Origin: Nevskiales bacterium
GTDB taxonomy: Bacteria; Pseudomonadota; Gammaproteobacteria; Nevskiales; JBOICV01
NCBI GenBank assembly: GCA_050740255.1
Contig: JBOICV010000164.1
Coordinates: 15,035-79,034, forward strand
DNA: 64,000 bases
Direction of reading: 5' to 3'
In this document: one piece after another, positions 23,408 to 47,394 of the stretch
Position numbering within the stretch: the first letter of the stretch is position 1
How the letters are laid out: each line of letters begins with the position of its first letter
Notes under the pieces: generated by a model
The model's input: the letters and a program-made list of their open reading frames with translations, nothing else
What the model was told of the DNA's origin: nothing
Database searches by the model: none
Made by a program: the position numbers and the translations under genes

Positions 23408-23484
23408 GCGCCCGTAGCTCAGCTGGATAGAGTGCTGCCCTCCGAAGGCAGAGGTCGTGAGTTCGAATCTCACCGGGCGCGCCA
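23408..23484 (+). tRNA. tRNA-Arg (anticodon CCG)
   Basis: Folded by hand into a cloverleaf. Acceptor GCGCCCG/CGGGCGC, D arm GCTC..GAGT, anticodon stem CTGCC/GGCAG with loop CT-CCG-AA, T arm GTGAG-TTCGAAT-CTCAC, encoded CCA. Confidence 0.95.
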
Positions 23485-25662: not shown

Positions 25663-26496
25663 ATGCGTGATGCAAAAAGGATAGTCGCCGGGCTGTTGCT
25701 CGGTGCGGGGGGGTTAGCTTGCGGCCAGGCCTTTGCTGATACCACGGGTACAGTGGCGGCCACCAGCGAATATCTATTCCGCGGTGTGGAGCAGGAAAAC
25801 GGCGCCGCCGTGCAGGGCAGCCTGACCTGGAATAATCCCGGCGGCTTTTATGTGGGCGCCTGGGCTTCCAACGCAGCAATTGCCGGCGGCAACGAGCTGG
25901 ATATTTACGGCGGCTGGACCACGGAGTTGGGCAACGGCCTGAGTTTGGACCTCGGTGTGATTTACTACCTGTACTCTGAAGCCGAGGAAACGCCGGGCAG
26001 CAATAGCCTCGATTACCCGGAAGTGTACGCTGGGCTGTCGTTCGGTGGCCTGAGCGGGAAGGTATTCTATGCAGCCGACATCAACGACGAAGCCAGCGAG
26101 GCCGGCACTTGCCAGGCCAATCTGGCCGCTCTGGGTTTTGTCGGGGCGAGCTGCAATAACGATCAGGAAGGCATTTACGCAACGCTCAGCTACGCGCTCA
26201 CCGTGAAAGAGGGCTTGGATCTGACTTTCCAGGTGGGCCATAGCACTGGCGACGGCGTGGAGAATTTGATGGCCGCCGGTTTCTATACTGGCTCTGGCCC
26301 CGGTAATCTGAATGCGGGCGACGACGACAGCTACACCGACTACAGCATCACGCTGTCGAAGGATCTGGGCAATGGCATGGGCGCGAGCTTCGCCTTTGTT
26401 GATACCGATCTTGAAGCGGTTGATGGCACCGGCAACACCGTATTTGAAGACGATGGTAAGTTCGTAGTGTCCTTCAGCAAGGAATTTGCGCTGTAA
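25663..26496 (+). CDS. TorF-family putative porin (TIGR02001-like), copy 1
   Basis: 277 aa. Signal peptide, then the family N-terminal signature ATSEYLFRGVEQ..AVQGSL, and later DYPEVYAGL. Confidence 0.8.
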   Translation: MRDAKRIVAGLLLGAGGLACGQAFADTTGTVAATSEYLFRGVEQENGAAVQGSLTWNNPGGFYVGAWASNAAIAGGNELDIYGGWTTELGNGLSLDLGVIYYLYSEAEETPGSNSLDYPEVYAGLSFGGLSGKVFYAADINDEASEAGTCQANLAALGFVGASCNNDQEGIYATLSYALTVKEGLDLTFQVGHSTGDGVENLMAAGFYTGSGPGNLNAGDDDSYTDYSITLSKDLGNGMGASFAFVDTDLEAVDGTGNTVFEDDGKFVVSFSKEFAL

Positions 26497-26788: not shown

Positions 26789-27508
26789 ATGAAGCACGCA
26801 AAGCTGCTGGCCGCTGTGCTGGTCTTGTTCAGTGCGCCGGCGCTGGCCCAGGTCAGCGGCAATATCACCGCCATCAGTGAGTACATGTTCCGCGGCGTCG
26901 CCCAGGAGGGCGGCGCGGCGCTGCAGGGCAGCCTGGACTATAGCCGCGAAGACGGCTGGTATTCGGGCGTCTGGGGTTCCAATTGCAGCGAATGCGGCGG
27001 CAACGAAATTGACTTTTACGGCGGCTGGACGGGTGAAGTCGGCCGTGGCGTAACGCTCGATGCCGGCGTGGTCTATTACCTGTTTACCGAGGACGCAGAA
27101 GTCAGCGGCGCGCCGGACATCGACTATCCGGAAATCTATCTCGGCGCCGGCTATGACGGCTTGAGCGGCACGCTTTACTACAGCAATAAGCTGGTGGACG
27201 AATTGAGCGACATCCCGGGCAGCGACCAGACGGGGTTTTATTTCACCGCGGATTACACCCATGCGCTGCGCGAGGGCCTGGAATTGGTGTTGCAGGTGGG
27301 GCGCAGTTGGGGCGATGGTGTTGACGCCGTCTTAGGCGACGCCTACACCGATTACAGCGTCACCGTGGTAAAAACGCTGGACGACGGCTTCAGCCTCAGC
27401 GCCGCGGTAATCGATACCGACCTGGACGCTGATGCCACCGCCACGACACCGGCCAGGGAGGACGACCCCAAGTTTGTGGTGGGTTTGAGCAAGGATTTTG
27501 CGTTTTAA
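26789..27508 (+). CDS. TorF-family putative porin, copy 2
   Basis: 239 aa. Signal peptide, signature AISEYMFRGVAQ..ALQGSL, DYPEIYLGA, C-terminal ..SKDFAF. Confidence 0.8.
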   Translation: MKHAKLLAAVLVLFSAPALAQVSGNITAISEYMFRGVAQEGGAALQGSLDYSREDGWYSGVWGSNCSECGGNEIDFYGGWTGEVGRGVTLDAGVVYYLFTEDAEVSGAPDIDYPEIYLGAGYDGLSGTLYYSNKLVDELSDIPGSDQTGFYFTADYTHALREGLELVLQVGRSWGDGVDAVLGDAYTDYSVTVVKTLDDGFSLSAAVIDTDLDADATATTPAREDDPKFVVGLSKDFAF

Positions 27509-27656
27509 GTTATTCGCGTGGGGTGAAGCCCTGAAGCTGGATGCGTTCGCGCCGGTCCGCGTGCAGTGGCTGGAGGAAGATTTTTTCCGGCGGTAATCGG
27601 CGGCAGAAGCAAGGCCCGCCAATCCTCGAAGCACAAGCCGGCGTGTTCGGCCGGGC

Positions 27657-30600
27657 TCATCCCTCATCCGCCTGAACCACCAGCAAATCCTGCCCCGCCG
27701 CCACGGCGCCGCCTTCCTTGCAGAACAGATGCGTCAGGATGCCGTCGCAGGGCGCGGCCAGGGAGAATTCCATTTTCATGGATTCGACGACGACCAGGGT
27801 TTGGCCCTGTTTTACGGCGTCGCCCACCCGGGCTTCTAGCCTCCACACGCTGCCGGCGACAGGGGTTGTCACCGGGCGCGCGTGTTCGGGCAGCTCCAGT
27901 TCGCGCTCGACGCCCGCCGCCGCCAGCGTCAGGTCGTTGGCGACCACGTCCTGTCCGGCGGCCTTCCAGCGTTCGCGCTCAGCTTCGAAAGCGGCCTGCT
28001 GGCGGGCCCTGAACTCGCCGATGGAAGCGGCGTTGGCCTCCAGGAAGAGGCGGTAGTCCTTGAGGCGGAAGCGGGCGGCTTCCAGCTTCAAGCGGAATCT
28101 GCCGCTGGCGAAATCCTCGCGCAGCTTGAGCAGCTCCGCCTCGCCCACCGGGTAGAAGCGCAGCTGGTCGAAGAAGCGCAGCAACCACGGTTGCGTGAAG
28201 TCGGCCGTGCGGCGGTGGCGGTTCCACATTTGCACCGTGCGGCCGACGAACTGGTAGCCGCCAGGCCCTTCCATGCCATACACGCAGAGATAGGCGCCGC
28301 CGATGGCCACGGCATTCTCCGGGGTCCACGTGCGGGCCGGGTTGTACTTGGTGGTGACCAGCCGATGGCGCGGGTCCAGCGGCGTCGCCACCGGCGCGCC
28401 GAGGTACACGTCGCCCAGGCCCATGACCAGGTAGCTGGCATCGAACACCACCCGGTACACGTCCTCGGTGGATGCCAGCCCGTTGATGCGGCGAATGAAC
28501 TCGATGTTGCTTGGACACCAGGGCGCATCGGGCCGCACCGACTGCATGTACTTGTCGATCGCCAGCCGGGTCGCCGGGTCGTCCCAGGACAGGGGTAGAT
28601 GGACGATGCGCGATGCCACCTCCATGTCGTCGAGACTGGGCAATCCCGCTTCCAGCGCCACGATTTTTTCGATCAATTCGTCCTGATCGGCGAGGCGGGG
28701 ATCGAAGTGGATTTGCAGCGAGCGGATGCCGGGCGTGAGGTCGAGCACCCCCCCGATCCTCCCGGCGCCGATTTCGTCCCGCAGCGCCTGCATCAGCGCG
28801 TGGATGCGAAAACGCAGTGCGAGATCGAGCACCGGCGGACCCATTTCGATCAGCAGGTTCGCGTCGCCCGATTGCCGGATCACCAAGGCGGGCCTCTCGT
28901 CCTCCCGTTCAAGCTGGCGCAGTACCGGCGTGCCGAGGAGGGCGTGTGCCACCGGCAAGCTGGCGAATGCCGGCGCGGGCGAGTGAAGGCCGGCGATGGC
29001 CGCGTCCTGGGCGGCTTGCAGGGCACGCGCCTGCGCGCCGGTGAGACGCTTGAAGCGAACCGTGGCGCCCGGCTTCAATTGACCCAGCTTCCACAACTCG
29101 GCCTGAACGATGCAGGCGGGGCAGACGAAACCGCCCAGGCTGGGTCCGTCGGGACCGAGGATGACCGGCATGTCGCCGGTGAAATTGACGGCGCCGATGG
29201 CATAGGCGTTGTCGTGGATATTCGAAGGATGCAGCCCCGCCTCACCGCCGTGCGCGCGCGCCCACTGCGGCCTGGGGCCGATCAGGCGGACCCCGGTTCG
29301 GGAGGAGTTGTAGTGCACTTCCCAGGCGGTGGCGAAGAAGCTCGCGATGTCGGCCTCGGTGAAAAAATCCGGCGCGCCATGGGGGCCGTACAGCACGCCG
29401 ATTTCCCAAGCGTCGCTCAGCGTCGGTTGCAGTCGGGCGTCCAGCTCGCTCACGCTTCCGTGTCGCTCGACGGGGATACGGGCTGTGATGTGCAACACGT
29501 CACCGCTACGCAGAGTGCGCCCGCCATGGCCGCCGAACTGGCCGAGGGTGAAGGTGGATTTGGAGCCGAGGGTGTCGGGCACCTCGAAGCCTCCGGCTAC
29601 GGCCAGGTAGCTGCGCAGCCCGGCGCCCTGCACGGCGCCCAGCTTGAGCACGCTGCCCGCCGGCACCGGATGGGCCTGCCATCCGGCCACGGGCGTGCCA
29701 TCCAGGGTGGCCTGCAGGGCCGCGCCGCCGAGGGCGATCAGGCTATCGCAATTGAAGCGCAAGCTCGGTCCGGCTGCCGTGAGTTCCAGCGCCGCGGCCC
29801 CTTCACGGTTGCCCACCAGCCGGTTGGCCAGACGCATGGACAAGTTGTCCATCGGGCCGGACGGCGGCACGCCCACATCCCAATAGCCTTGCCGTCCCGG
29901 CCAGTCCTGGATGCTCGACTGCAAGCCGGGCTCCAGCACGTCGGCGGTCGCCGGCCGGTAGCGGAAGCCGTCCAGCATGCGGGTGGTCTGGCGGCCGGCG
30001 ATGAAGTCCGGACTGGCCAGCACCTGGGCCAGGTAAGCCAGGTTGGTTTCGATGCCGGCCACGGTGCTGGCCTGCAACGCAGCGATCAGCTTGGCGCGCG
30101 CCGCCTCGCGAGTCGCGCCGTGGGCGATGAGCTTGGCCAGCAGCGGGTCGTAGTTGGGCGGCACCTCGGTGCCGGCCTCGACCCAGCCGTCGACACGTAT
30201 TCCGTCCGGGTAGGCCACGGCGCTGAGCAGGCCTGTCGACGGCTGAAAATTCTTGTTGGGATCTTCAGCGTAGAGGCGGACCTGGATCGCCGCACCGTGC
30301 GGTTCGATGACGAAGCTGTCGAGCGCCGGCAACTCGCCGGCGGCCAGGCACACCATCCACTCCACCAGGTCCACGCCGGTCACGGCTTCGGTGACGCCAT
30401 GCTCCACCTGCAAACGGGTGTTCACTTCGAGGAAATAGAACGCGCCGGCGCCGACGTCATAGACGAATTCCACGGTACCGGCGGAGCGATAGTTCACCGC
30501 CTGGCCGAGCTTGACGGCGGTGGCCAGCAGAGCGGCGCGTTGCGCGTCGCTCAAGCCGGGTGCCGGCGTTTCCTCCACCACCTTCTGGTTGCGTCGCTGC

Positions 30601-31289
30601 ACCGAGCAATCGCGCTCGCCCAGGGCGATCACGCCGCCATGGCCGTCGCCGAAGATCTGTACTTCGATGTGGCGCGCGTGCTCGACGTATTTTTCGAGAT
30701 AGCTGCCGGCTTGCTTGAAGTTGGCGCGGGCCAGGCGCTCGACGGTGGCGTAGGCTTGCGCCAGTTCGTCCTCGCTGCGGATCAGGCGCAGGCCGATGCC
30801 GCCGCCGCCGGCGGTGCTCTTCAGCATCAGCGGATAGCCGATGCGCCGCGCCTCGGCGGCGGCATGGCCGGCGTCGGCCAGCAGGCCGGACCCCGGCAGC
30901 AGCGGCACGCCATTTTCTTCGGCCAGTTGCCGCGCCGTATGCTTGAGGCCGAAGTCGCGCATGTGCTGCGCCGCCGGGCCGATGAAGACAATGCCGGCAG
31001 CAGCGCAGGCGTCGGCGAAATCCGGGTTCTCGGAGAGGAAGCCGTAGCCCGGGTGGATAGCCTGGGCACCGCAGGCCTGGGCGATTTCAAGAATCCGGTC
31101 GGCCCTCAGATAACTTTCGCTGGCCGGGGCCGGGCCCAGCAGGTAAGCCTCGCCGGCCTGCCGCACATGGCGGGCGCCGGCGTCGGCGGCGGAATACACC
31201 GCCACCGACGCCACGCCCAAGCGGTCGAGAGTGCGCTGGATGCGGCAGGCGATGGCGCCGCGATTGGCGATCAGGACTTTGCTGAACAT
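27657..31289 (-). CDS. urea carboxylase / guanidine carboxylase (biotin carboxylase + KipA/KipI-like carboxyltransferase + biotinyl domain)
   Basis: 1210 aa. N-terminal [19 protein letters not shown]-grasp biotin carboxylase, central allophanate-hydrolase-subunit-like domains, C-terminal biotin attachment VESMKME. The substrate (urea vs guanidine) cannot be read from sequence by eye. Confidence 0.95.
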
Positions 31290-31305
31290 CGATTACCGGT
31301 GCGGG

Positions 31306-31971
31306 TTACGGCGCATCCCACAACAGAAACCGCACCGGGGTCGGGTTGTAGGCATTGCAGGGATTGTTGAGCTGCGGGCAGTTGGAGGCGAGCAGCCACA
31401 GGTCCATCTCGGCGCGCAGTTCCACATACTTGCCCGGCGCGGAGACGCCGTCCGCGAAACTGAGTTCGCCCGCCGCTGTCACCGGCACGTTCATGAAGAA
31501 GTTGATGTTGGGCACCAGGTCGCGCTTGCCGATGCCGATGTCGGCGTGCTGCAGGGCGGTCAGGAAATTGTCGCGGCAACTGTGCATGAACTTTTTCTGC
31601 AAGGCGTAGCGCACCGAATTGCTCTCGGCGGCACAGGCTCCGCCGAGCGTGTCATGACGCCCGCAGGTATCGGCGACGAGGGTCAGCATCAGCTTGCCGT
31701 CGTTGCTGTACAGCGCCGAATCCGTGGTCAGGTAGATGCCGCCCTGGCGCAGCAGGGTTTGCGTCGCGCTGTAGTGTTCGGCCGGGTCGTGCCGGTTGTA
31801 GAACAGCGCGTCCACCGCCTGGTTGCCTTCCAGGTCGACGATGCGCACGGTCTGCCCGCGCCCGATCTCGAGCAGGTAAGGCTCGCCGGCGGGCAGGGTG
31901 TGGTCGAGCACGGCGGCGGCGGGGTCGAAGCGGCTTTCGCGGATGCGGATGGCCGCGCTGGCATCGGTCAT
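31306..31971 (-). CDS. urea-amidolyase-associated protein UAAP2 (DUF1989; carboxyguanidine deiminase subunit-like)
   Basis: 221 aa. Paralogous by eye to the upstream 270-aa protein, in the canonical position immediately upstream of the carboxylase. Confidence 0.8.
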   Translation of the reverse strand: MTDASAAIRIRESRFDPAAAVLDHTLPAGEPYLLEIGRGQTVRIVDLEGNQAVDALFYNRHDPAEHYSATQTLLRQGGIYLTTDSALYSNDGKLMLTLVADTCGRHDTLGGACAAESNSVRYALQKKFMHSCRDNFLTALQHADIGIGKRDLVPNINFFMNVPVTAAGELSFADGVSAPGKYVELRAEMDLWLLASNCPQLNNPCNAYNPTPVRFLLWDAP

Positions 31972-31980
31972 GGCAGTTCT

Positions 31981-32793
31981 CTATCCGATGAGATAAAGCA
32001 TTTCGGCGTTGTGGATGGCGCGGGCGTTCTCGGGACGGAAGCCGCGGCAGTAATCGTCTTTCGGCGCCGGTCCGGAGCGCCAGGCCGCCAGGCCGACCGG
32101 CTTCGGCGCGTAGGCGGGCGACGGATCGAGCGGGTGCGGCGCGGTCGAACAGGCGAGCAGCACGTCCATCTCGAAGCGCAGTTCCACATGATCGCCGGGC
32201 TGGCTGTGATCGGGAACGAAATGGAAACGCCCTTCGCCGTCCACGCTCACCTTGGAGAAGAAATTCACCGGCGCCGTCAGGTCGCGCTTGCCCAAGCCGT
32301 ACTTGCCCAGTTCGATCAGCAGGCCGTCGCGCCCGGAGCGGTACATGCCGTTGCGCGCCGCCTGGTAGTTGCGCACGCCATATTTGCGCTGCATCGAGCC
32401 GGCGTCCAGCAGCAGGCCCAGGGGGTCGTGCCAGCCCAGCGTATCGGCGGTGATCGAGGCCAGGGCGCGACCCATGTCGCTCATCAGCACGTGGCCGCGA
32501 GTGTAGTGGGCCGTGTGCTGTGCCTTGAGCGAGTCCGGCATGTTGTAGCGCTCCAGCTTTTCGCGCGCCGAGTACAACACCAGGCTGATGTTGGCGCCGG
32601 CTGCCAGCGCCGTCAGGCGCAGCGTGGTGCCGCGCGCCAGCAGATACGACCAGTGGCCGCCGCCGGGAACTCGCTCGGAGAACAGCACCGACCCGGCCGC
32701 CAGGTCGGGCGCGAAACTGCGCCAGTGTTCCGGCGCATCCACCGGCGCGCTCGGGGGCGGATTTTGCGGAGTGAATTCAGCCGGGGTTTGCAT
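31981..32793 (-). CDS. urea-amidolyase-associated protein UAAP1 (DUF1989; carboxyguanidine deiminase subunit-like)
   Basis: 270 aa, in the canonical UAAP1-UAAP2-carboxylase order. Confidence 0.8.
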   Translation of the reverse strand: MQTPAEFTPQNPPPSAPVDAPEHWRSFAPDLAAGSVLFSERVPGGGHWSYLLARGTTLRLTALAAGANISLVLYSAREKLERYNMPDSLKAQHTAHYTRGHVLMSDMGRALASITADTLGWHDPLGLLLDAGSMQRKYGVRNYQAARNGMYRSGRDGLLIELGKYGLGKRDLTAPVNFFSKVSVDGEGRFHFVPDHSQPGDHVELRFEMDVLLACSTAPHPLDPSPAYAPKPVGLAAWRSGPAPKDDYCRGFRPENARAIHNAEMLYLIG

Positions 32794-33298
32794 GATGTTC
32801 CACGTTCGAAGAGCGCTTGGCGCGGGTGGCGGAAAGGGCAGTCGCCGGCAGCGGATGCAGGGGCGGCATCATGGCCGCCAGTAGCTGCAGCTGGCCGGTC
32901 ACCACGCCGCGCAGCGTGATCATATCGTTGGCGATGTCGCGCAAGCGTTTGGCAGGACCCTGGATCAGGATCACTTCCAGCAACTGGTCCTCGCTCAGAT
33001 GCACATGCAAGGAACTGATCACCTCGTCGAGATGGCGGTATTGGAGATCGGCCAGCTTCTTTAGCAAGCCCCGGGTGAGGCGGTCGTAGAGCAGCGTGAC
33101 GGTGCCCACCATGACGTGGTTGCCCAGTTCGCGCTTGTGCTCGGCCAACTGGTAGTTGACCATCTCGCCGATGGCCTGCGAGCGGCTGCCATAGCCGCGG
33201 CTCTGCACCATCCGGTCCAATTCCGCGAGCAGGTCTGGCGGCAGCGAGATGCTGATGCGGCTCACCAGGCGGTTGCTTGCATGCTTTTTTTTTGGCAT
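32777..33298 (-). CDS. NikR-family ribbon-helix-helix regulator with a degenerate metal site
   Basis: ATG 33298 within ORF 32777..33673. The N-terminus SRISISLPPDLLAELDRMVQSRGYGSRSQAIGEMV matches the NikR RHH (E. coli RVTITLDDDLLETLD..RGYNNRSEAIRD). The C-domain has SLHVHLSEDQLLEV versus E. coli [14 protein letters not shown]. The 3' end overlaps the UAAP1 start by 17 nt. Confidence 0.8.
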   Translation of the reverse strand: MPKKKHASNRLVSRISISLPPDLLAELDRMVQSRGYGSRSQAIGEMVNYQLAEHKRELGNHVMVGTVTLLYDRLTRGLLKKLADLQYRHLDEVISSLHVHLSEDQLLEVILIQGPAKRLRDIANDMITLRGVVTGQLQLLAAMMPPLHPLPATALSATRAKRSSNVEHHANPG

Positions 33299-33308
33299 TC
33301 CGTCCCCG

Positions 33309-34670
33309 CTAAAACAGGTAACTGTAGCGTTCGATCTCCCACTGGCTGACGCTGAGGTGATACGCCTCCCATTCCTCGGTTTTATAACGAATGAATTCGT
33401 CGCGCAATTCCTTGCCCAAGGTCGCTTGCACCAGTGGGTCGGCGGCGAAGGCGGCCACCGCCTCCTGCAGCGTCTGCGGCAGGAACTCGATGCCGCGGGC
33501 TTGGCGCTGTTCCTCGCTGATGGCATAGAGGTTGTCTTCGTTCGGGTTGCCCGGATCGAGTTTTTCGCGGATGCCTTCGAGTCCCGCCGCCAGCACCAGC
33601 GTCGCGGCGAGGTAGGGGTTGACCGCGCCGTCGGCGTTGCGCGACTCGCAGCGCCCACCGCCGGCCGGAACACGCACCGAGTTGGTCCGGTTGTTGGAAC
33701 CGTAGGAGTTGAACACGGGAGCCCACGAGTAGTAGCTCATCGCGCCGCGCCGCACCAGGCGCTTGTAGCTGTTTACCGTGGGGGCGAACACCGCGCACAG
33801 CGCGCGGCCGTGCTTGAGCATGCCGGCGATGAACTGGTAGCCCAGGGGCGTGAGCCCGATGCCGCGCCGGTCCTCCTGCGGGTCGCAGGCGAACAGGTTG
33901 CGGCCGCTGCCCGGATCGTAGAGCGACAGGTTGAAGTGGGCGCCGTTGCCGGTCTTGTCGGCGAAGGGCTTGGGCATCATGGTGGCGAGCAGGCCCTGTT
34001 CCCTGGCGTAGTGCTTGGCCATGAAGCGGAAGAAGATCAGGCGGTCGCAGGTGGTCAGGGCATCGGCATAGTTGAAGTCGAACTCGAACTGGCCGTTGGC
34101 GTCTTCGTGATCGAAGGAATACAGATCCCAACCCAGGCCGTTGATGGCCGTCGCCATCTGGTCCAACCACGGAAAGCTATTGGTGAAACCGCGCAGGTCG
34201 TAGCAAGGCTTGGTGAGCTTGTCATCGGCATCCGGCACCGACAGGCTGCCGTCGGCATGTTGCTTCAGCAGGAAGATCTCGCACTCGATGCCGAGGTTCA
34301 TGCCGAAGCCCATTTGTGCCGCTCGCGCCAACTGGCTTTGCAGCGCCACCCGGGTGTTGAGCGGATAGGGCCGGCCCTGGTAATGGTTGTCGGCGGGAAT
34401 CCAGGCGATCTTGGGCTCCCAGGGCAACTGGATCAGGCGGCTGAAATCCGGGACCGAGGTTATTTCGTCGTCATTGGGCGCCTGGCCCAGACCGTCCAGC
34501 GCATAGCCGGTGTAGCGCTCGGAACCGTGCGCCATAGCTTGCAGATGTTCGATGGGAACCACCTTGGCCTTGGGTATGCCGTGGATATCGACGTAGGCAC
34601 CGATGCAGTACTTGACCCCCTTTTCGGACAGCTCTTGCTGCAGGCGGGAGACAGCATCGATGGCGGACAT
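33309..34670 (-). CDS. glutamine-synthetase-family ligase (GlnA-like / gamma-glutamyl-amine ligase type)
   Basis: 453 aa. GS beta-grasp N-domain and catalytic-domain motifs (ECEFFL-like [22 protein letters not shown]). Confidence 0.85.
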
Positions 34671-34698
34671 GGTCTTTCCTCAGGGGCATGCAAGCGGG

Positions 34699-35493
34699 TC
34701 AGAAATCGGCGGTTACCGAGGTAGCGTAGGGCTGGTCCAGCGGGGGGTTCTCGGCCATCCCACGGCGGACCAGGTCGCTCAAGTCCTCGACCAGCCAGTC
34801 GAACCAGCGCGCGCCTTTCTCGGCGGTGGCCAGGCTGGGCTGGCCGGTGACGCCGTTGCGGCTGCTGCGGTTGACCGGATGGGCGAAGACGCAGCCGCCG
34901 CTGCGATCGGGATCGTCGGCGGCGGCTAGCCGTTCGGGACGTACTCCGCCGGGCGCGATAGCCAGCATCAGCGAAGTCTCGGCATCGTTGGCATGCCAGT
35001 CGGCGGCATCGGCAAAAAAATGGAATTGGCGCACCCGCTCGCTGATGTTGGCGGTATCGATCACGGCCACCATCAAGTCGTCATGCTCGGCGCGCAACAT
35101 TTCCAGCGCGCAGCGCAGGGGCGCGGCATTGGTCACGTGGGCGTTGACGATGAACAGCCGGCGCACGCCGCTGTGATAGGCCCAGTCGCCGATCTGCTTG
35201 ACCAGTTCGATCAGGGTGATCGGCTGCACCGCGAGGGTGCCGGGCCAGCGTTGGCTATGACCGATGGAACAGCCGTAAGGCAAAGTGGGCAGCATCGGTA
35301 CGCCGGTTTTTTCGGCGACGGCGGCGCATAGGTGTTCGGCGATCACCGTGTCCACGCCGCAGCCCAGATGCGGGCCATGTTGTTCGGTGGCGCCGACCGG
35401 CAGCAGGGCAGCGTGTCCGACCCGCGCCAAAACCGCGGGTATCTCGGACCAGGTCAGATCGGACCAGCGCCGGGAGCTTGGCCTATTCGACAT
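34699..35493 (-). CDS. creatininase-family amidohydrolase
   Basis: 264 aa with the family motif [13 protein letters not shown] and downstream His/Asp/Glu metal ligands. Overlaps the ABC ATPase stop by 11 nt. Confidence 0.8.
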
Positions 35494-36397
35494 TGTCGTT
35501 GACGTCCGTGAGCCGGATCAGCTGCGGCTTGACCGTCGCGTCCTCTTCCGCATCGAAGCTGACCGGCGGATGGATCAGTTCTTCCAGGCGTGCCCTGGTG
35601 GCGCGGAATTCAGCAGAGTTGAACTGCGCCGGAGCGCGCGGCCGCGGTACCGGTACCTCGATGAATTCCTGCACCTCGCCCGGCTGCGCCTTGAGCACCA
35701 GGATGCGGTCCGCCAGATAGGCGGCTTCGTCGAGATCGTGGGTGATGAACAGCACCGTGATGTCGATGTTCTTCCAGATGTCGAGCAGGTGCGATTGCAT
35801 GCGCGCCCGGGTCTGCGCGTCGAGCGCGCCGAAGGGCTCATCCATGAGCAGGATGCGGGGCTGATTGACCAGGGCGCGGGCGATCGCCACTCGTTGCCGC
35901 ATGCCGCCCGACAATTGATGCGGATAGGCGTCGGCGAACTTCGACAGGCCGACCAGGTCCAGCCACAGCAGGGCGTCGCGCTCGGCCTCGTCGCGGCCGT
36001 AGCCGCTCGTCTGGGGACCGAACATCACGTTCTTCTTGACCGTGAGCCAGGGGAACAGGGAATAGCCCTGGAACACCATGCCGCGGTCGCGGCCCGCGCC
36101 AAGCACTGGCTTTCCGTCCAGCAACACCTCCCCCGAACTATGGCTTTCCAGGCCGGCGAGGATGCGGATCAGGGTGGACTTGCCGCAGCCCGAGGGCCCG
36201 ATCGCGCAGATGAATTCGCGGCGATGGATCTTGAAGCTGACGTTGCGCAAGGCGTCCACTGCTCCCTGGGACGAGACGAAACGCTTGTTGAGATCGCGCA
36301 CTTCGAGGATGACTTCGCGCCGGTGGATTTTTTCGAAGCGCGCCTTGACCGCATCCGACTGCTGCAGGTAGTGGGGCCGGGGCAGTTCCGCTTGCAT
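35483..36397 (-). CDS. ABC transporter ATP-binding protein (NitT/TauT nitrate/sulfonate/bicarbonate family)
   Basis: 304 aa. Walker [10 protein letters not shown], signature LSGGMRQR, Walker B LLMDEP. Confidence 0.9.
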
Positions 36398-36400
36398 GGC

Positions 36401-37363
36401 TCAGCTCCGCTCCTGCGGACGGTCCCAGGGGAACAAGCGGCGGCCGAGCCGGTCGAGCGCCGCGTCGGTGCCGAAGCCGATGATGCCGATGATGATGATC
36501 GCGGCGTAGACGTTGTCGAAGTGCTGATAGCGCGCCTGCTGGGTGATAAAAAAGGTGATGCCCGAGCTGGAGCCGATCAGTTCCGCCACGATCAGGTAGG
36601 TCCAGGCCCAGCCCAGCAGGATGCGCTGGTCGCGGTAGAGGTCGGGCAGGATGCCGGGGACCACCACCCGCGTCAGCAGGCGCAGGCGGCGCGCGCCCAG
36701 GGTCTTGGCCGCCTCGAGAATGGTGGTGTCGAGTTTACGCGTGGTGTTGGCGACGATCAGCACCTGCTGGAACAGGGTGCCGATGACGATGATGGCGATC
36801 TTGGGACTGTCGTAAATGCCCAGCACGGCTACCGCCAACGCGCCGAAGGCGGGCGCGGGCAGGTAGCGGAAGAATTCGATGAAAGGCTCGTTGAGCCGGG
36901 ACAGGGTGACGTAGGTGCCCGAGAGAATGCCCAGCGGCACGCCGATCAGCGAGGAGAGCAGGAAGCCCCAGGCGATGATCTGAACGCTATGCCACAGACT
37001 CTCGTGCAGCCAGGGCGCGTCCCTCTGTTCCGGCGCGCGAGTGAAGGCGGTGTAGAAGGCGGCCGCCACCCGATGCGGCGCCGGCAGGTAAATCGGGTTG
37101 GCCGCGCGGCCCTTGGGCAGCGCTAGTCCCTGGGCGCGCATCTGGGCGACCTCGTCGGCGAAGACATCCTTGTCTACCAGCATGCCGACCTGGAAATAAT
37201 CCACGGCGCCGACCTCCTCGACCAGCACCTTGGGGTGCCAGACGAAGGGGACGTAGCTGACCACGCACCAGAGCAGGGTCGGCAGCAGAAACGAGCCGAG
37301 CGTCAGCAGCGAGCGCCGGCGTCGTGGGCGCCATTGGGGAATCATGTGGACGCCGCTGCCCAT
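36401..37363 (-). CDS. ABC transporter permease (NitT/TauT family)
   Basis: ORF 36401..37399; ATG 37363 is preceded by GGGAGG 5 nt upstream. Multiple TM segments, BPD-transport EAA-like loop (EAAKTLGA). Confidence 0.8.
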   Translation of the reverse strand: MGSGVHMIPQWRPRRRRSLLTLGSFLLPTLLWCVVSYVPFVWHPKVLVEEVGAVDYFQVGMLVDKDVFADEVAQMRAQGLALPKGRAANPIYLPAPHRVAAAFYTAFTRAPEQRDAPWLHESLWHSVQIIAWGFLLSSLIGVPLGILSGTYVTLSRLNEPFIEFFRYLPAPAFGALAVAVLGIYDSPKIAIIVIGTLFQQVLIVANTTRKLDTTILEAAKTLGARRLRLLTRVVVPGILPDLYRDQRILLGWAWTYLIVAELIGSSSGITFFITQQARYQHFDNVYAAIIIIGIIGFGTDAALDRLGRRLFPWDRPQERS

Positions 37364-37413
37364 GGAGGCCTCCCGCCGACGCCGGGTCGGTGGGAACAAA
37401 AAAATAAACTCGG

Positions 37414-38412
37414 TTACTCGGCGTTGGTGAAGGACGGATCGAGATAGCTGTCAACGTTCTGTGGCGCCTTGTAGACGCCGTTAGTGACGTTGAAGCTGTC
37501 GGCTACCTTGGTGGAGCCATAGAGGGACTCGAAGCCGTCGCCCTCGACGTAAATCTTCCTGCCTTCACTCAGACTGAGGAGCTTGGTGCCCTTGAGCAGG
37601 GGCAGGTAAGCCTCGGGCGCAATGCCCACCCGGGCCGCCATGATCTTGACCGCATCCGGCTGGGTCTTGGGGTCCTCGATGTAGCTCACCACCCGATCCC
37701 AGACCTTGACCACCTTCTGCCAATCGGCGCGCCGGCTCTTGACGCTGGCTGGACTGACGGCGAGCACGTCGTAGATCAGCCCCGGTTCGTCGGCCGAGGT
37801 GTAGATGGGATGGGAGCCCGGCACGGCTTTCATCGCCTCGCCGATGACCGGCTGCCAGGCGCCTACCGCGGCGATGTCGGCCGCGCCCAGTATTTGCGGC
37901 ATTTCGTTGGTCTTGGCGTTGACCAGGGTGAGGTCGGATTCCTTGAGACCGGCTTTCTCCAGGCCGTTAAGCAACAGCAGGTGCTCCACCAGGCCGGCTT
38001 CCACCGCCACCTTCTTGCCCTTCAGGTCCTTGAGGGACTTGTACTGGGGCTTGGCGACGATCATGTCGTTGCCGTTGGAATAGTCGGTCAGCATCACCAT
38101 GATGCTCTTGGCGCCGCCGGCGCCGGTCACCAGCGCGTCGCCATTGGTCATGGTGACGGCATCAATCTTGCCGGCGGTGAAGGCGTCCATCGAGGCGGAA
38201 TAATCGAACCACTCGAAAGTGACGTCTACACCCGCCTCCTTGAACCAAGCCTTGTCTATCGCCACCTGCCAGGCCACCCAGCCCGGCCAGTCGCTATAGC
38301 CGATCTTGAGCGGCGCAGCCGCCTGGGTGGCGACGGATGCCAGCGTGGTGGCGCCCACCAGCAGGCCTGCGAACCAGCGTTTCACCCTTCCCCCGGTCCT
38401 GTTCGTTTCCAT
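37414..38412 (-). CDS. ABC transporter periplasmic substrate-binding protein (NMT1/THI5-like)
   Basis: ORF 37414..38556; ATG 38412 is preceded by AAGGAG 7 nt upstream. It gives signal peptide ..LVGATTLASVATQAAA followed by PLKIGYSDWPGW. Confidence 0.85.
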   Translation of the reverse strand: METNRTGGRVKRWFAGLLVGATTLASVATQAAAPLKIGYSDWPGWVAWQVAIDKAWFKEAGVDVTFEWFDYSASMDAFTAGKIDAVTMTNGDALVTGAGGAKSIMVMLTDYSNGNDMIVAKPQYKSLKDLKGKKVAVEAGLVEHLLLLNGLEKAGLKESDLTLVNAKTNEMPQILGAADIAAVGAWQPVIGEAMKAVPGSHPIYTSADEPGLIYDVLAVSPASVKSRRADWQKVVKVWDRVVSYIEDPKTQPDAVKIMAARVGIAPEAYLPLLKGTKLLSLSEGRKIYVEGDGFESLYGSTKVADSFNVTNGVYKAPQNVDSYLDPSFTNAE

Positions 38413-38434
38413 GGTTCGACTCCTTGAAGATGCG

Positions 38435-38462
38435 GTATTACGATTCAACACGAAAGTCATAC
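38435..38462 (-). promoter_or_regulatory. NikR-type operator candidate GTATGA-N16-TAATAC
   Basis: The minus strand reads GTATGA-ctttcgtgttgaatcg-TAATAC (plus strand GTATTA 38435-38440, TCATAC 38457-38462). This is one mismatch from the E. coli nik operator GTATGA-N16-TCATAC. It lies between the sigma54 promoter and the SD/ATG of the first operon gene. Confidence 0.5.
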
Positions 38463-38482
38463 TTGGCGCGTCCTCTATCTCT

Positions 38483-38498
38483 AGCAAGAACGGGGCCA
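38483..38498 (-). promoter_or_regulatory. sigma54 (-24/-12) promoter of the ABC-to-carboxylase operon
   Basis: The minus strand reads TGGCCC-CGTTC-TTGCT, with exact GG-N10-GC spacing versus consensus TGGCAC-N5-TTGCW. It is about 70 nt upstream of ATG 38412. Confidence 0.6.
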
Positions 38499-38814
38499 GT
38501 GCCGGGTCAGCGGTCAAGCGTCTGTTTGCGCCAGGTTTGTGGTTTTTCGGGGGCACAGGCGGCCCTTGGGCGCCCGTTCAGCCTTGTGCGAGTGCGCCGA
38601 TGCACCAAAGTAAGCGCGTAGGGAAGCGCACCGGGTTAGCGGCGCGTAGCCGGTTCCGTGTCATTCACGCACCACTGTCTTGGTCCTGGTGTCCGTGACT
38701 TACGCGGGAGATCGCGCAGACCGGCCCTAACTCAGGTTGACCCACGACCGGTTGCGGAGTAATTTCGCTGGGAGGGGCGCTGACATTCCTATTCTTTTGG
38801 GGGACAAGCACGAC

Positions 38815-40635
38815 GTGCAGGAGCGCGCCGATGCGTCCGGCCTCGGCCTCGATTTGACGACCCTCACGGCCCGGTACGGGGCCGGCGCTACGACCCCCTC
38901 GGAGGTCGTCCGCGTCGTCTACCGGCGCATCCCCGAGTACCTCTCGAACCCCCTCTGGATCACCCTCCGGCCCGAGGAGGACGTCCTCGGCGAGGCCCTG
39001 GCCCTCGAAGCGCGCGGGCCCGCGCGAGGGCCGCTCTACGGACTGCCCTTCGCGGTCAAGGACAACCTCGACTGCGCGGGGTTGCCGACGACCGCGGCCT
39101 GCCCGGCCCTGACCTATATCCCCGCGAAGAGCGCCCATGCGGTGCAACGTCTCCTGGATGCCGGGGCCCTCCTCATCGGCAAGACCAACCTGGACCAGCT
39201 CGCGACCGGGCTCACGGGTACTCGTTCGCCGCACGGTGTCTGCCGCAACCTGTTCGATGAGCGTTACATCGCCGGGGGCTCGAGCAGCGGCTCGGCGCTC
39301 TCGGTGGCCGCGGGTCTCGTCTCTTTCGCGCTCGGTACCGACACGGCCGGCTCGGGCCGGGTGCCGGCGGCGTTCAACAACATCGTGGGTCTCAAGCCGA
39401 CGCGCGGGCTGGTGAGCACCCGCGGGCTGGTGCCGGCCTGCCGCTCGCTCGACTGCGTCTCGGTCTTTGCGCTCTCCTCGACCGACGCGCTGGCGGTCCT
39501 GCGCGTGCTTGCCGGCCACGACCCCGAGGACCCGTATTCGCGGTCGGACGCCTCGGTGATCGGGCTTGCGCCCGTCGCGCCGCCGGCGAGCTTTCGGTTC
39601 GGCGTCCCGAACGCGCTCGAGTTCTTCGGCGACGGCGAGGCGGAGCGGCTCTTTCACGCCGCGCTGCGACGCCTCGAGACGCTCGGCGGCACAGCCATCG
39701 AGATCGATTTCGCCGCGTACCGGGAAGCCGGGCGGCTCCTCTACGGCGGCCCCTGGCTCGCCGAGCGCTTCCTCGCACTCGCGCCCCTCCTGGCGCGCGA
39801 TCCCGATGTCCTGCACCCCGTCGTGCGCGCCGTGGTCGAACCCGGGGGACGACACTCGGCTGCCGAGTGTTTCGCCGCGCAGCATCGGCTACAGGCACTC
39901 GTCCAGGCCACCCGCCGAGACTGGGCGGCGATGGACCTCCTCGTCACCCCCACGGCCGGGACGTGTTATACGCGCGCGGCCATTGAGGAGGAGCCCATCC
40001 GGCGCAACGCCGATCTCGGGTACTACACGAACTTCGTCAACCTCATGGATCTGTGCGCCCTGGCCGTGCCCGCCGGCTTCACCGGCTCGGGTCTGCCGTT
40101 CGGGGTGTCGCTGCTCGCACCCCCCTTCCGTGAAGGCTTCTTGTGCGCGCTGGGCCATGCGCTACACGCCGCGCAAGGGTTGACGGTGGGGGCGACCCGC
40201 CATCGTCTGCCTGTCGGTCCGGCCGCGCTACCAGCGGACGGCACGACGGTGCGGCTCTGCGTCTGCGGTGCGCACATGTCGGGACTGCCCTTGAACGGCG
40301 AGCTGCTGCGGCTGGGTGCGCGGTTTGTCGGACCCGCGCGCACGGCGCCGCGTTACCGTCTTTATTGCCTCGATCGCTTCGCGCCCCCGCGGCCGGGGCT
40401 CGTGCGCGAGGCGCTCGGCGCCGCGATCGAGGTCGAGGTGTGGGCGCTGCCGGTCGCGGGCTTCGGCGCCCTGGTCGCCGGGATTCCCGCCCCACTCGCG
40501 ATCGGACGGGTCGAGCTCGAGACCGGGGAGGAGGTCGCGGGCTTCCTGTGCGAGGCCCACGCGACCGAGGGCGCCCGCGACATCACCACGCATGGCGGTT
40601 GGCGCGGGTATCTGGCCACCGGGGGCGGGCCATGA
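38815..40635 (+). CDS. atzF: allophanate hydrolase (amidase-signature family)
   Basis: ORF 38737..40635. Amidase signature GGSSSGSA and the C-terminal AtzF-type domain are present. The start is uncertain: TTG 38737 coincides with a -35-like TTGACC, so I prefer GTG 38815, preceded by GGGGGA. Confidence 0.85.
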   Translation: MQERADASGLGLDLTTLTARYGAGATTPSEVVRVVYRRIPEYLSNPLWITLRPEEDVLGEALALEARGPARGPLYGLPFAVKDNLDCAGLPTTAACPALTYIPAKSAHAVQRLLDAGALLIGKTNLDQLATGLTGTRSPHGVCRNLFDERYIAGGSSSGSALSVAAGLVSFALGTDTAGSGRVPAAFNNIVGLKPTRGLVSTRGLVPACRSLDCVSVFALSSTDALAVLRVLAGHDPEDPYSRSDASVIGLAPVAPPASFRFGVPNALEFFGDGEAERLFHAALRRLETLGGTAIEIDFAAYREAGRLLYGGPWLAERFLALAPLLARDPDVLHPVVRAVVEPGGRHSAAECFAAQHRLQALVQATRRDWAAMDLLVTPTAGTCYTRAAIEEEPIRRNADLGYYTNFVNLMDLCALAVPAGFTGSGLPFGVSLLAPPFREGFLCALGHALHAAQGLTVGATRHRLPVGPAALPADGTTVRLCVCGAHMSGLPLNGELLRLGARFVGPARTAPRYRLYCLDRFAPPRPGLVREALGAAIEVEVWALPVAGFGALVAGIPAPLAIGRVELETGEEVAGFLCEAHATEGARDITTHGGWRGYLATGGGP

Positions 40636-40682
40636 GCGCGGTTACCCCTACACTTTACGCCTCCCTTCCGGATTGAGCCGCG

Positions 40683-41576
40683 ATGGGAACCCGGCTGTTC
40701 AAGGCGGCGAAAAGTCCGCACCTCGTGGCCTTTGATGGCAGGTTCAAGCTCAAGCACGCGCCGACCGAAGCACCCAAGGGCGCGCCGGATAAAACCGCGG
40801 CGAAAGCGCGGCTGGCGGAACTGGTCAAAAAGCTCGACGAGCTGCAGCGCGTACTCTACGCGCATGACAATCATTCGGTATTGCTGGTGTTTCAGGCGAT
40901 GGATGCCGCCGGCAAGGACAGCACCATCCGCGCGGTGCTGAGCGGTGTGGATCCCGCCGGCTGCGAGGTCTACTCCTTCAAGCGGCCCAGCGAACAGGAG
41001 CTGGGCCACGACTTTCTGTGGCGCACCGCGCAATGTCTGCCGCAGCGCGGCCGCATCGGCGTGTTCAATCGCAGCTATTACGAAGAGGTGCTGGCGGTGT
41101 GCGTGCATCCGGAATTTCTGGGCGCACAAAAACTGCCGGCCTTGCCCAAAAATCTGGATCGGTTATGGGAAGAGCGCTACAAATCCATCCGCGACCATGA
41201 AAAGCATCTGGCGCGCAGCGGCACCCTGATTCTCAAGTTCTGGCTGAACGTCTCGGCCGAGGAACAACGCAAGCGTTTTATGACGCGATTGCAGGAACCC
41301 GAGAAGAACTGGAAATTCGAACTGGCCGATGTACGCGAACGTGGCTTCTGGCGGCAATACATGCGGGCCTATGAGGACGCACTGAACGCGACCTCGCGTC
41401 CCTGGGCGCCGTGGTATGCGATTCCGGCCGACAACAAAGCTTACATGCGCATGGCGGTGGCCGAAATCATCGTGCGCAGCCTGAAAAAGCTCGACTTGCA
41501 TTACCCGCGTCTTGAGGCAGACGAGCTGGCCAAGTTCGCTCGGCTCAGGCGCCAGCTCGCGCGCAAAGACGCGTAG
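40683..41576 (+). CDS. ppk2: polyphosphate kinase 2 family protein
   Basis: 297 aa with the PPK2 Walker-like motif FQAMDAAGKDSTI and lid motif. Confidence 0.9.
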   Translation: MGTRLFKAAKSPHLVAFDGRFKLKHAPTEAPKGAPDKTAAKARLAELVKKLDELQRVLYAHDNHSVLLVFQAMDAAGKDSTIRAVLSGVDPAGCEVYSFKRPSEQELGHDFLWRTAQCLPQRGRIGVFNRSYYEEVLAVCVHPEFLGAQKLPALPKNLDRLWEERYKSIRDHEKHLARSGTLILKFWLNVSAEEQRKRFMTRLQEPEKNWKFELADVRERGFWRQYMRAYEDALNATSRPWAPWYAIPADNKAYMRMAVAEIIVRSLKKLDLHYPRLEADELAKFARLRRQLARKDA

Positions 41577-41780: not shown

Positions 41781-42557
41781 TTACAAGCTTCGCGCAACCG
41801 TGAACACCACGCGCCCTTCGCACACGTCCTCGCCCACACCCGCGAACAGCAAACAGTCTTTCTCGTTCAGATCGGTGTCGGTGTAGGCCAGCGTGAAATT
41901 CAGGCCGGCCGCCGCCAGTCCGAGCGCGACGCTGTAGTCCGTGTAGCTGTCCTCGAGGGCGACGGGGAGGGGTGGCACGAGCGTTTCCTTATCCAGCGTC
42001 TGATGGCCGACGTGGAAGCCCAGCGAGAAATTATTCTGTAACGGTATGCCCAGGTTCGCTTCGTAGTAAAAACCGTCATCGAAGGCAAGCCCGAAGAAAT
42101 CCGGCGAATAGTGGATTTTGCCGTTGATATTGAAAGTGCCGAAGTCGTAGAACAGCGCCGGGGTCAGCTCGAGATAGTCGTATTCCAGCTGGCTGTCGGT
42201 GCCCGGGTAGAGGAAGTACGTCAGATTGATGTCCCAGCCGGCTTTTTCGTTCGGGAACTTGCCACCCCAGCCGACATAGATATCGAACTCGACTTGCCCG
42301 TCGTCAACCTCAAGGGGATCGGGTAGCAGTTCGTTTTCGTTGAAGTCCACATTGGAACCCCATACTCCGGCGTAAAACCCGTTGTCCTCCTTGAAGTCTA
42401 TGCTGCCCTGAAACGCCGGGTCTTGTGAACTTTGCGAGATGCCGCGGAAGACGTAATCGCTGGTTAAATAAACGGTGCCGCTAAAGCCGGTCGCGAGCGC
42501 TGCGCTACTCAATCCCGCCAAGGCGGCCGCCACACCTGCTGTGAAAATCTTACGCAT
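41781..42557 (-). CDS. TorF-family putative porin, copy 3
   Basis: 258 aa. Signal peptide, then the signature LTSDYVFRGISQ..AFQGSIDF. Confidence 0.8.
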   Translation of the reverse strand: MRKIFTAGVAAALAGLSSAALATGFSGTVYLTSDYVFRGISQSSQDPAFQGSIDFKEDNGFYAGVWGSNVDFNENELLPDPLEVDDGQVEFDIYVGWGGKFPNEKAGWDINLTYFLYPGTDSQLEYDYLELTPALFYDFGTFNINGKIHYSPDFFGLAFDDGFYYEANLGIPLQNNFSLGFHVGHQTLDKETLVPPLPVALEDSYTDYSVALGLAAAGLNFTLAYTDTDLNEKDCLLFAGVGEDVCEGRVVFTVARSL

Positions 42558-44583: not shown

Positions 44584-45147
<564 letters not shown>

Positions 45148-45173
45148 ATTTCTTACCAGGGGAGAGAGTTGTC

Positions 45174-46889: not shown

Positions 46890-46928
46890 GCTTGCGGATT
46901 TACTTGGCCTAGCCAGGCCGGGTCTTCG

Positions 46929-46957
46929 AGGCGCCCCTTCACCGGGGCGCCTTTTTT
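46929..46957 (+). terminator. rho-independent terminator after amtB copy 1
   Basis: AGGCGCCCC-TTCACC-GGGGCGCCT stem followed by a T-run. Confidence 0.8.
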
Positions 46958-46971
46958 ATTGGCCGCGATAA

Positions 46972-47394
<423 letters not shown>

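Follow-up and report, generated by a model that had tools for sequence, protein, structure and literature searches.

What do a creatininase-like hydrolase, a glutamine synthetase (GS)-like ligase and a NikR-like regulator contribute to an operon whose other genes encode a transporter and a urea/guanidine carboxylase pathway? The question is raised by a 64,000-nt stretch from the metagenome-assembled genome (MAG) of a Nevskiales bacterium, hereafter the window, which carries such an operon at positions 27657-40635. Guanidine has been recognised as a real nitrogen source only recently, to our knowledge only two routes of its degradation are known, and the operon of the guanidine carboxylase pathway was reportedly described by Schneider in 2020 and Sinn in 2021. 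With a probability of about one half, the locus can be read as a system for guanidine scavenging induced by nitrogen starvation and as one copy of an enlarged guanidine carboxylase operon, a variant that is widespread. The recurrence of the gene arrangement in related genomes and the guanidine riboswitches located there carry this answer.

Organization of the operon

Families were assigned with Pfam and NCBIfam profiles, RNA elements were searched with Rfam and gene starts were set from the context of the ribosome-binding site (RBS). Nine minus-strand genes follow one another in the order solute-binding protein (SBP), permease, ATPase, creatininase-family, GS-family, NikR-family, UAAP1, UAAP2 and carboxylase, and the gene for allophanate hydrolase (AH) is divergent:

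37414-38412, minus strand: periplasmic SBP of the NitT/TauT (NMT1/SsuA) type (PF09084/PF13379); start set by an AAGGAG RBS, Sec signal peptide
36401-37363, minus strand: ABC permease, TauC/SsuC/NtrB-like (PF00528); start at 37363 probable
35483-36397, minus strand: ABC ATPase (PF00005)
34699-35493, minus strand: metal-dependent amidohydrolase of the creatininase family (PF02633, 234 bits)
33309-34670, minus strand: GS-like ligase of the GmaS clade (Gln-synt_C PF00120, 300 bits; TIGR03105, 668 bits)
32777-33298, minus strand: NikR-family regulator of 173 aa (RHH_1, PF01402, and NikR_C, PF08753)
31981-32793, minus strand: UAAP1, a DUF1989 protein, CgdAB-type carboxyguanidine deiminase subunit (TIGR03425, 341 bits, cutoff 206)
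31306-31971, minus strand: UAAP2, a DUF1989 protein, CgdAB-type (TIGR03424, 328 bits, cutoff 285)
27657-31289, minus strand: biotin-dependent urea/guanidine carboxylase of 1210 aa (TIGR02712, 1843 bits)
about 38815 to 40635, plus strand: AH (TIGR02713, 748 bits) with Amidase and AH_C domains

The same ten genes, with their strands, their order and the divergent AH, had been listed in a preliminary description of this DNA, and open reading frame (ORF) and profile checks confirm them; Pfam and NCBIfam agree with all ten family assignments. The description had also placed the core in the guanidine carboxylase/CgdAB/AH pathway, which the matches to TIGR02712, TIGR03424/TIGR03425 and TIGR02713 bear out, and had set the creatininase-like and GS-like enzymes outside the published scheme, in keeping with a literature search in which no description of them in this context was found. 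With refined starts, the junctions from SBP to carboxylase measure +50, +3, -11, +28, +10, -17, +9 and +16 nt, so that the spacing of -17 to +28 nt given previously holds at seven junctions and fails at the SBP/permease junction (+50). The ATPase stop and the creatininase-like start share 11 nt, and the NikR-like and UAAP1 genes share 17 nt. A 298-aa version of the NikR-like ORF was rejected as a gene, since it runs into the GS gene; the real start lies at 33298.

Conservation of the extended gene block

A search with the creatininase-like protein as query, taking one genome per species, returned 321 relatives, and the analysis was made on the best 80 (74-84% identity). All ten window proteins were mapped onto these 80 loci; denominators are the loci with sequence available, and presence of the core was judged within 10-kb flanks. 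The loci belong mainly to Betaproteobacteria, comprising Thiobacillus, Hydrogenophilales, Gallionellaceae, Rhodocyclaceae, Sulfuricella, Ferriphaselus and Methyloversatilis, and their proteins are mostly 60-88% identical to those of the window operon, AH excepted.

The ABC transporter lies ahead of the creatininase-like gene in all 68 loci, the GS-like gene is next after it in 69 of 69, and the NikR-like gene is next after the GS-like gene in 64 of 67. The DUF1989/carboxylase core lies at most 10 kb away in 57 of the 64 judgeable loci. The arrangement is not a matter of chance, for dozens of genomes repeat this gene order. The linkage of block and core persists where the core has been inverted or relocated (L056, L060, L077, L080) and spans two core lineages, in which UAAP1 is either about 75-80% or about 52-57% identical to that of the window. 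Seven loci have the transporter-creatininase-GS block without the core, and six of these seven retain the NikR-like gene; in L067 (Aquabacterium) and L072 (Mangrovitalea) the core-less block lies among unrelated housekeeping genes, and in L078 (Solimonas) the core is missing on both sides. Strong as its tie to the core is, the block is thus a separable and self-contained unit. Two loci show additional transporter genes: in L014 the NikR-like gene and cgdA are separated by a further permease/ATPase pair (12838-14400), and L044 has a second SBP paralog upstream (about 3658). A protein search of a plasmid collection with the creatininase-like protein was uninformative, giving only matches of at most 36% identity from Streptomyces and Listeria.

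Guanidine riboswitches at both ends of related operons

Two loci, L013 (Sulfuricella T08) and L031 (Ferriphaselus R-1), possess the complete operon, including the creatininase-like and GS-like genes, and lack both the NikR-like gene and the NikR-type operator box that occupies the leader of most other loci. At the position of the box they carry a guanidine-I riboswitch (89.5 and 92 bits, gathering score 63), which sits behind the sigma-54 promoter and immediately before the SBP gene. The NikR-like protein, a probable repressor, and guanidine-I are thus alternative devices at one control point. As orthologs of the window SBP (72-77% identity) stand immediately behind this riboswitch, the transporter is inferred to import guanidine. 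The window SBP scores 151 bits against TIGR03427, 'urea-carboxylase-associated SBP' (cutoff 334), and by this score appears as a related but distinct subfamily; among solved structures it finds only remote taurine, sulfonate and nitrate binders, which permit no inference on the ligand.

At the other end, a guanidine-II riboswitch, recognisable by two GGGACGRCCC hairpins, occupies the interval from the second DUF1989 gene to the carboxylase gene in about 50 of 52 loci; its Rfam score is at or above the gathering score in three loci, and in a fourth it is 20.8 bits. The window, L042 and L077 lack this riboswitch, and the UAAP2-carboxylase gap of the window (31290-31305), at 16 nt, offers no space for it. 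Since the operon is guanidine-controlled at both ends, the creatininase-like and GS-like enzymes belong to guanidine metabolism.

In enterobacteria, guanidine-I precedes the transporter and cgdAB, and guanidine-II precedes the carboxylase and AH (PMC12186494). The related loci follow the same two-riboswitch plan, in which a sigma-54 promoter with a NikR box replaces guanidine-I and three genes are inserted. The guanidine carboxylase operon of Pseudomonas syringae, Raoultella and Klebsiella (PMC12186494) shares with them the transporter type, the DUF1989 pair, the TIGR02712 carboxylase and AH, as well as the gene order, guanidine-II before the carboxylase and, in two loci, guanidine-I before the transporter; it differs in that here the creatininase-family, GmaS-clade and NikR-family genes lie between the transporter and cgdAB.

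These results bear on two statements of the preliminary description. The link that it drew between the creatininase-like and GS-like genes and the carboxylase core is upheld by the pairing in 69 of 69 loci and the core in 57 of 64. Its suggestion of a true substrate that would be larger, and cyclic or N-substituted, fares otherwise: nothing shows such a substrate, and guanidine-I in two genomes and guanidine-II in about 50 of 52 loci point to guanidine itself.

Promoter and operator of the operon

The leaders of 68 loci were aligned for control elements, and three were located upstream of the window SBP gene:

38592-38606, minus strand: upstream palindromic element GGTGCATCGGCGCAC, a candidate site for an NtrC-type enhancer-binding protein, lying about 95 nt 5' of the sigma-54 promoter
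38484-38498, minus strand: sigma-54 (-24/-12) promoter TGGCCCCGTTCTTGC of the nine-gene operon
38435-38462: 28-bp inverted repeat of the NikR operator type, GTATGAC-N14-GTAATAC, placed after the promoter and before the RBS

The strict sigma-54 pattern TGGC-N7-TTGC (TGGCAC-N5-TTGC) occurs 65-101 nt 5' of the SBP start in 45 of 68 loci. The count rises to 46 with L031, where the pattern stands at -209, ahead of the riboswitch, and to 67 of 68 with the relaxed pattern GG-N10-GC. The palindrome GGTGC-N4-9-GCAC is present upstream of the SBP gene in 34 of 68 loci, against 1.85 expected from shuffles. A consensus scan of the operon for internal promoters and terminators gave no signal over shuffled background; one sigma-54 promoter with its upstream palindrome drives nine translationally coupled genes.

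The operator box is more regular still. The repeat [A/G]TATTAC-N14-GTAATAC is found at the equivalent leader position in 61 of 68 loci, with a spacer of 14 nt every time. In about 1.25 Mb of related loci the box occurs 63 times, on every occasion upstream of the SBP gene, and the box at 38435-38462 is the sole copy in the window. Neither a second NikR box nor a sigma-54 promoter for AH was found in the window. The operon repeat matches the published NikR boxes, GTGTTAC-N13/14-GTAACAC of delta-proteobacteria and GTATGAT-N13/14-ATCATAC of enterobacteria (PMC545781). Its occurrence tracks that of the NikR-family gene encoded in the operon, both being missing together in L013, L031 and L082.

The NikR-like regulator

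The NikR-like protein combines an N-terminal RHH domain with a C-terminal NikR_C domain and exceeds the cutoff of NF003381 (117 bits against 105). In an alignment with the NikR proteins of E. coli and P. horikoshii, the nickel-site residues of the former (His76', His87, His89 and Cys95) correspond to Tyr87, His98, His100 and Leu106 of the window protein. Among 66 orthologs, residue 87 is Tyr in 57, Phe in 4, Cys in 4 and His in 1, and residue 106 is Met in 51, Leu in 8, Ile in 3, Val in 3, Thr in 1 and Cys in none. An exhaustive search over 1.84 billion cluster representatives (50% clusters) was evaluated on its best 150 matches: the 32 nearest representatives (38-63% identity) are variable at the site positions and none of them has the His3Cys set, and the canonical HHHC occurs in 66 of the 150, first at rank 33. 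Judged by these residues, the branch of the NikR family to which the protein belongs is a diversified one of non-nickel type. It resembles NikR of E. coli, P. horikoshii and H. pylori in the union of RHH with an ACT-like C-terminal domain and in a 28-bp operator of the GTRTTAC-N14-GTAAYAC type; it differs in having no high-affinity His3Cys site, in being tied to a nitrogen-scavenging operon and not to nickel uptake, and in sharing its position with a guanidine riboswitch.

The protein could be the operon's own regulator, which the preliminary description had not considered, and is probably a local repressor of it. Most likely it does not sense nickel. That it senses either guanidine or a metabolite of the pathway is given about even odds, and an input by metal is an unlikely prospect.

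The regulator may alternatively be a true metal sensor, which would repress a nickel-independent and ATP-costly route whenever nickel serves urease or a nickel-guanidinase; the extra enzymes would then not be tied to the signal of the regulator. Its family, its RHH domain and a box nearly identical to known NikR boxes agree with such a role, and the equivalents of His87 and His89 are invariant. NikR has elsewhere been predicted to repress a nickel-independent isozyme (PMC545781), and urea carboxylase is the classical nickel-free alternative to urease (PMC2667541). Against this stand the Cys ligand missing from every ortholog, the Tyr that mostly takes the place of His76 and the absence of His3Cys from the nearest relatives. 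In addition, L013 and L031 replace the regulator by a guanidine riboswitch and not by another metal sensor, and no nickel transporter or nickel enzyme was seen in the scanned ORFs of the window, in the genes flanking L001, L006, L067 and L072, or in any gene cluster that recurs at the loci. A nickel logic is accordingly held to be unlikely.

The GS-like ligase

The NCBIfam profile 'type III glutamate-ammonia ligase' (TIGR03105) matches the GS-like protein at 668 bits (cutoff 470). Among solved structures this protein comes closest to two glutamate-methylamine ligases, 9qur at 397 bits and 7cql at 351 bits, and it is about 45-50% identical to GmaS. Pocket residues were numbered by the structure paper of RhGmaS (PMC7948447), the numbering being checked on the alignment. 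The protein has the GS fold in common with GmaS, together with the loss of the ammonium residues of GS: Asp50' is replaced by Thr54, and the Glu of the Glu-flap (Glu327 in E. coli, Glu304 in B. subtilis) by Trp316, both invariant in the orthologs. The equivalents of the catalytic Asp177, Glu179 and Glu186 are kept, with Asp187 and Glu196 as the counterparts of Asp177 and Glu186. It differs from GmaS in the amine pocket, where Gln175, Asn188 and Trp189 of RhGmaS (the last being Trp or Tyr in solved GmaS) give way to Ser185, Asp198 and Phe199, so that the pocket gains an Asp and a smaller side chain in Ser. These three residues are invariant in at least 72 orthologs and retained even in the 53%-identical copy of L031.

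A comparison within single genomes is offered by two Thiobacillus MAGs, L006 and L022, in which another ligase paralog, bearing the Gln/Asn/Tyr signature of true GmaS, is encoded a few kb upstream. This paralog stands among genes of the N-methylglutamate pathway (mgd subunit, true GmaS and mgsABC), which lie directly upstream of the operon (39-6745 in L006 and the matching region of L022). Such genes are absent from the window and from 77 of 80 loci, and L053 has a lone mgdC homolog. A link of the pathway to the operon was rejected, since the two are adjacent in only 2-3 of 80 loci and the pathway belongs to the other ligase paralog, whereas the operon ligase gene does not itself lie among N-methylglutamate genes.

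By its residues, the operon ligase is neither a glutamine synthetase nor a typical methylamine ligase, and its roomier and more acidic pocket may fit a larger cationic amine such as guanidinium. The label 'GS-family' given previously stands as to the family; the ammonia residues of GS are absent, and the pocket is unlike that of true GmaS.

Could the ligase nevertheless be an extra glutamine synthetase for released ammonia, with the creatininase-like protein as a loosely related hitch-hiking amidase? The NCBIfam name and score favour such ordinary assimilation, RhGmaS weakly turns over NH4Cl (PMC7948447), and the D. aromatica genome paper, which suggests that strain RCB has the cluster, took a neighbouring gene in this sense (PMC2907700). 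The missing Asp50' and Glu-flap residues, the strict pairing with the creatininase-like gene in 69 of 69 loci and a pocket signature that is invariant even at 53% identity all oppose it, and we hold it to be quite improbable. Nitrogen-starved cells, moreover, already express GlnA at a high level.

The creatininase-like hydrolase

Creatininase, the archetype of the family, hydrolyses creatinine, a cyclic acylguanidine; other members of PF02633 are deformylases or peptidases. The operon protein reaches no curated subfamily, scoring 117.5 bits against the NCBIfam cutoff of 235 for creatininase (TIGR04448) and 127 against 172 for MftE. It shares the fold and most of the binuclear-metal and catalytic residues with creatininase (1j2t/3a6h), MftE, ArfB and IolN, the equivalents of Glu34, His36, Asp45, His120, His178 and Glu183 being invariant in 80 of 80 orthologs. 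It differs from creatininase in scoring only about 74-83 bits to the solved structures and in the equivalent of the metal ligand Glu122, which is Thr in all 80 orthologs, the other four binuclear ligands being kept. Of the residues in contact with creatinine, neither Ser78, which aligns to Ile, nor Trp154 is conserved.

Both families together allow a reading, in outline that of the preliminary description, in which the pair processes a precursor. An imported cyclic or N-substituted guanidino or ureido compound, of the creatinine, methylguanidine or guanylurea type, would be split into guanidine or urea and a small amine; the GmaS-like ligase would trap the amine as a gamma-glutamyl amide, and the core would mineralise the rest. 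The family activities fit this scheme, the one being that of amidohydrolases which open rings or remove formyl groups and the other that of amine ligases, with a member here so close to GmaS. Translational coupling of the creatininase-like gene to that of the transporter ATPase is in line with it, and so is the adjacent N-methylglutamate pathway in L006 and L022. There is also a precedent in MgdH and MgdL, which are encoded in a guanidine-riboswitch operon and serve the use of methylguanidine (PMC12508155). The scheme is countered by several observations. No natural compound is known that would give guanidine and a ligatable amine by one hydrolysis, and methylamine is an unlikely product, as the amine pocket is invariantly unlike that of GmaS and true GmaS coexists with it. 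The creatininase contacts are not kept and the score lies under the creatininase cutoff, the RNA sensors of related operons are sensors of guanidine, and N-methylglutamate genes are missing from the window and nearly all loci. Precursor processing is a possibility about as likely as the preferred form of the pathway described below, and like it stays well under even odds.

Proposed pathway

Under nitrogen limitation, an NtrC-type activator would switch the promoter on, and the NikR-like local repressor would add a second, substrate-related input, in place of the guanidine-I riboswitch of other genomes. The NitT/TauT ABC transporter would import guanidine, and the carboxylase, the CgdAB-type DUF1989 pair and AH would mineralise it to ammonia. 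Hydrolase and ligase would form an ATP-dependent side branch of two enzymes that acts on guanidine itself or on a compound very closely derived from it, the ligase coupling a small cationic amine (neither ammonia nor methylamine) to the gamma-carboxyl of glutamate and the hydrolase cutting an acyl-guanidine or amide bond.

In the preferred form of this branch, glutamate, guanidine and ATP would yield gamma-glutamylguanidine, which would be converted to glutamine and urea (or to a ureide and NH3). The route is suggested because two independent family clues converge on an acylguanidine and loci with the block only exist; it is put forward tentatively. A more far-reaching version, which we regard as doubtful, would see here an activation of guanidine that needs neither biotin nor nickel: gamma-glutamylguanidine, the equivalent of a 5-oxo-arginine, would undergo an arginase-like split to glutamine and urea, and the NikR-family protein would be the first protein sensor of guanidine or its conjugate, interchangeable with guanidine-I.

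Several points weigh against the proposed guanidine-scavenging operon and its side branch. The window itself has no riboswitch, neither by Rfam at the gathering score nor at E<=10 in the leader 38300-38950, and its carboxylase carries the urea-type Asn described in the next section. The swap of riboswitch and NikR-like gene is a positional equivalence and not proof of a common ligand, and the invariant His87 and His89 equivalents, taken with the NikR-like box, make a metal input possible. The upstream palindrome would be an NtrC-type site by resemblance only. As to the chemistry, the literature search found no precedent for gamma-glutamylguanidine. The side branch looks redundant with the carboxylase/CgdAB route, and cleavage of the acyl-N bond by the creatininase-like enzyme would merely undo the work of the ligase in a futile cycle, so that another regiochemistry is needed. 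The canonical pathway of P. syringae and enterobacteria also runs without the extra enzymes (PMC12186494).

The atypical carboxylase of the window

The published criterion for urea and guanidine carboxylases looks at two positions in the numbering of the K. lactis enzyme: Asp at 1584 is conserved, and position 1330 is Asp in guanidine carboxylase and Asn in urea carboxylase (PMC11410670). With the offset checked on 3va7 and 5i8i, the window carboxylase has Asn702 (codon 29184-29186, AAT) at position 1330 and Asp960 (GLGDVYLG) at 1584. Asp, encoded by GAC or GAT, occupies position 1330 in 49 of 50 orthologous loci and in 117 of 118 top database homologs, and Asn702 amounts to a single G-to-A change from GAT to AAT. 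The only other Asn-type carboxylase among the 118 top homologs is P0179, from locus L082 (1-11164), where the genes run in the order SBP, permease, ATPase, creatininase, GS, two DUF1989 and carboxylase, with no NikR-like gene, NikR box or riboswitch. The AH of the window is peculiar as well. It is 48-53% identical to those of related loci, and it is divergent, whereas in 43 of 45 related loci the AH gene comes right after that of the carboxylase and shares its strand; its sequence and position suggest that the gene was replaced or relocated.

The window copy therefore differs from the known guanidine carboxylase operon in having no riboswitch, an Asn at the specificity residue and a divergent AH, and it may be a derived form, possibly partly re-tuned towards urea; some copies of the operon seem, on this evidence, to be drifting in that direction. 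That the window copy was re-tuned from guanidine to urea we consider possible, though doubtful. The Asn at a discriminating position that is otherwise almost uniformly Asp, the loss of guanidine-II, the divergent and dissimilar AH and the companion case of P0179/L082, likewise without riboswitch and NikR-like gene, are what such a change might be expected to look like. However, two DUF1989 subunits of the CgdA/CgdB type, both over their cutoffs, adjoin the carboxylase; intact cgdAB genes would be pointless for urea, and their retention argues against a complete switch. Moreover, L042 and L077 lack guanidine-II but keep the Asp, and, the window being from a MAG, a single-base consensus or sequencing error is possible at codon 702.

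Genomic surroundings

Three genes for Gcw_chp outer-membrane beta-barrel proteins lie around the window operon (25663-26496, 26789-27508 and 41781-42557), and a ComM-like gene and glnK-amtB-glnK are located just beyond them (44632-47394). Near the related loci, Gcw_chp occurs in 26 of 80, glnK in 25 of 80 and amtB in 28 of 80. The surroundings are a conserved nitrogen-acquisition neighbourhood, Gcw_chp-glnK-amtB preceding the operon in about 20-28 related loci.

A gene for polyphosphate kinase 2 (PPK2) at 40683-41576 on the plus strand, 47 nt past the AH stop, was rejected as part of the system, since just 1 of 80 loci has it in its flanks, and is probably unrelated to the operon. The minus-strand genes at 12575-21672, which encode an MMPL/RND-like protein, two DUF1329 proteins and one DUF1302 protein, are likewise unrelated. 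Two Rfam matches are unlinked to the operon, namely anti-hemB (Burkholderia RNA 7; 51.6 bits, just over the gathering score) at 1253-1348 and a tRNA at 23408-23481.

The operon block (27600-40700) has a GC content of 0.64-0.68, against about 0.60 in the flanks, and a GC3 of 0.81-0.89 against 0.69-0.78. The record of the window is Nevskiales and the nearest homologs are betaproteobacterial; with the contrast in GC, horizontal acquisition is possible.

Significance of the extended operon

The guanidine operon of Vreelandella boliviensis is extended by the dioxygenase MgdH and the lyase MgdL for the use of methylguanidine (PMC12508155). It resembles the present one in joining two accessory enzymes to a guanidine carboxylase operon and differs in that the accessory families are unrelated and the chemistry proposed here would be O2-independent and ATP-dependent. 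The literature search found no description of a creatininase/GS/NikR module with urea/guanidine carboxylase, nor of a guanidine-sensing transcription factor. The core pathway is already known; the hydrolase-ligase extension, the control by sigma-54 and NikR box, and the interchange of the NikR-like gene with guanidine-I appear to be undescribed in the literature searched.

Overall, the extended operon is common in chemolithoautotrophs and denitrifiers of groundwater and sediment (Thiobacillus, Gallionellaceae, Rhodocyclaceae, Sulfuricella and Methyloversatilis), and three of its nine genes are routinely mis-named 'creatininase', 'type III glutamine synthetase' and 'NikR'. The change from Asp to Asn together with the loss of the riboswitch in the window copy constitutes a natural experiment on the specificity for guanidine or urea. 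That the hydrolase-ligase pair is so strictly conserved where guanidine riboswitches are in control implies that a step of guanidine metabolism is missing from the known scheme, and there is a realistic chance that the operon hides a new enzymatic step and a new sensor. The exchange between riboswitch and NikR-like regulator presents a directly testable candidate for a protein sensor of guanidine, which may be of use in biosensors.

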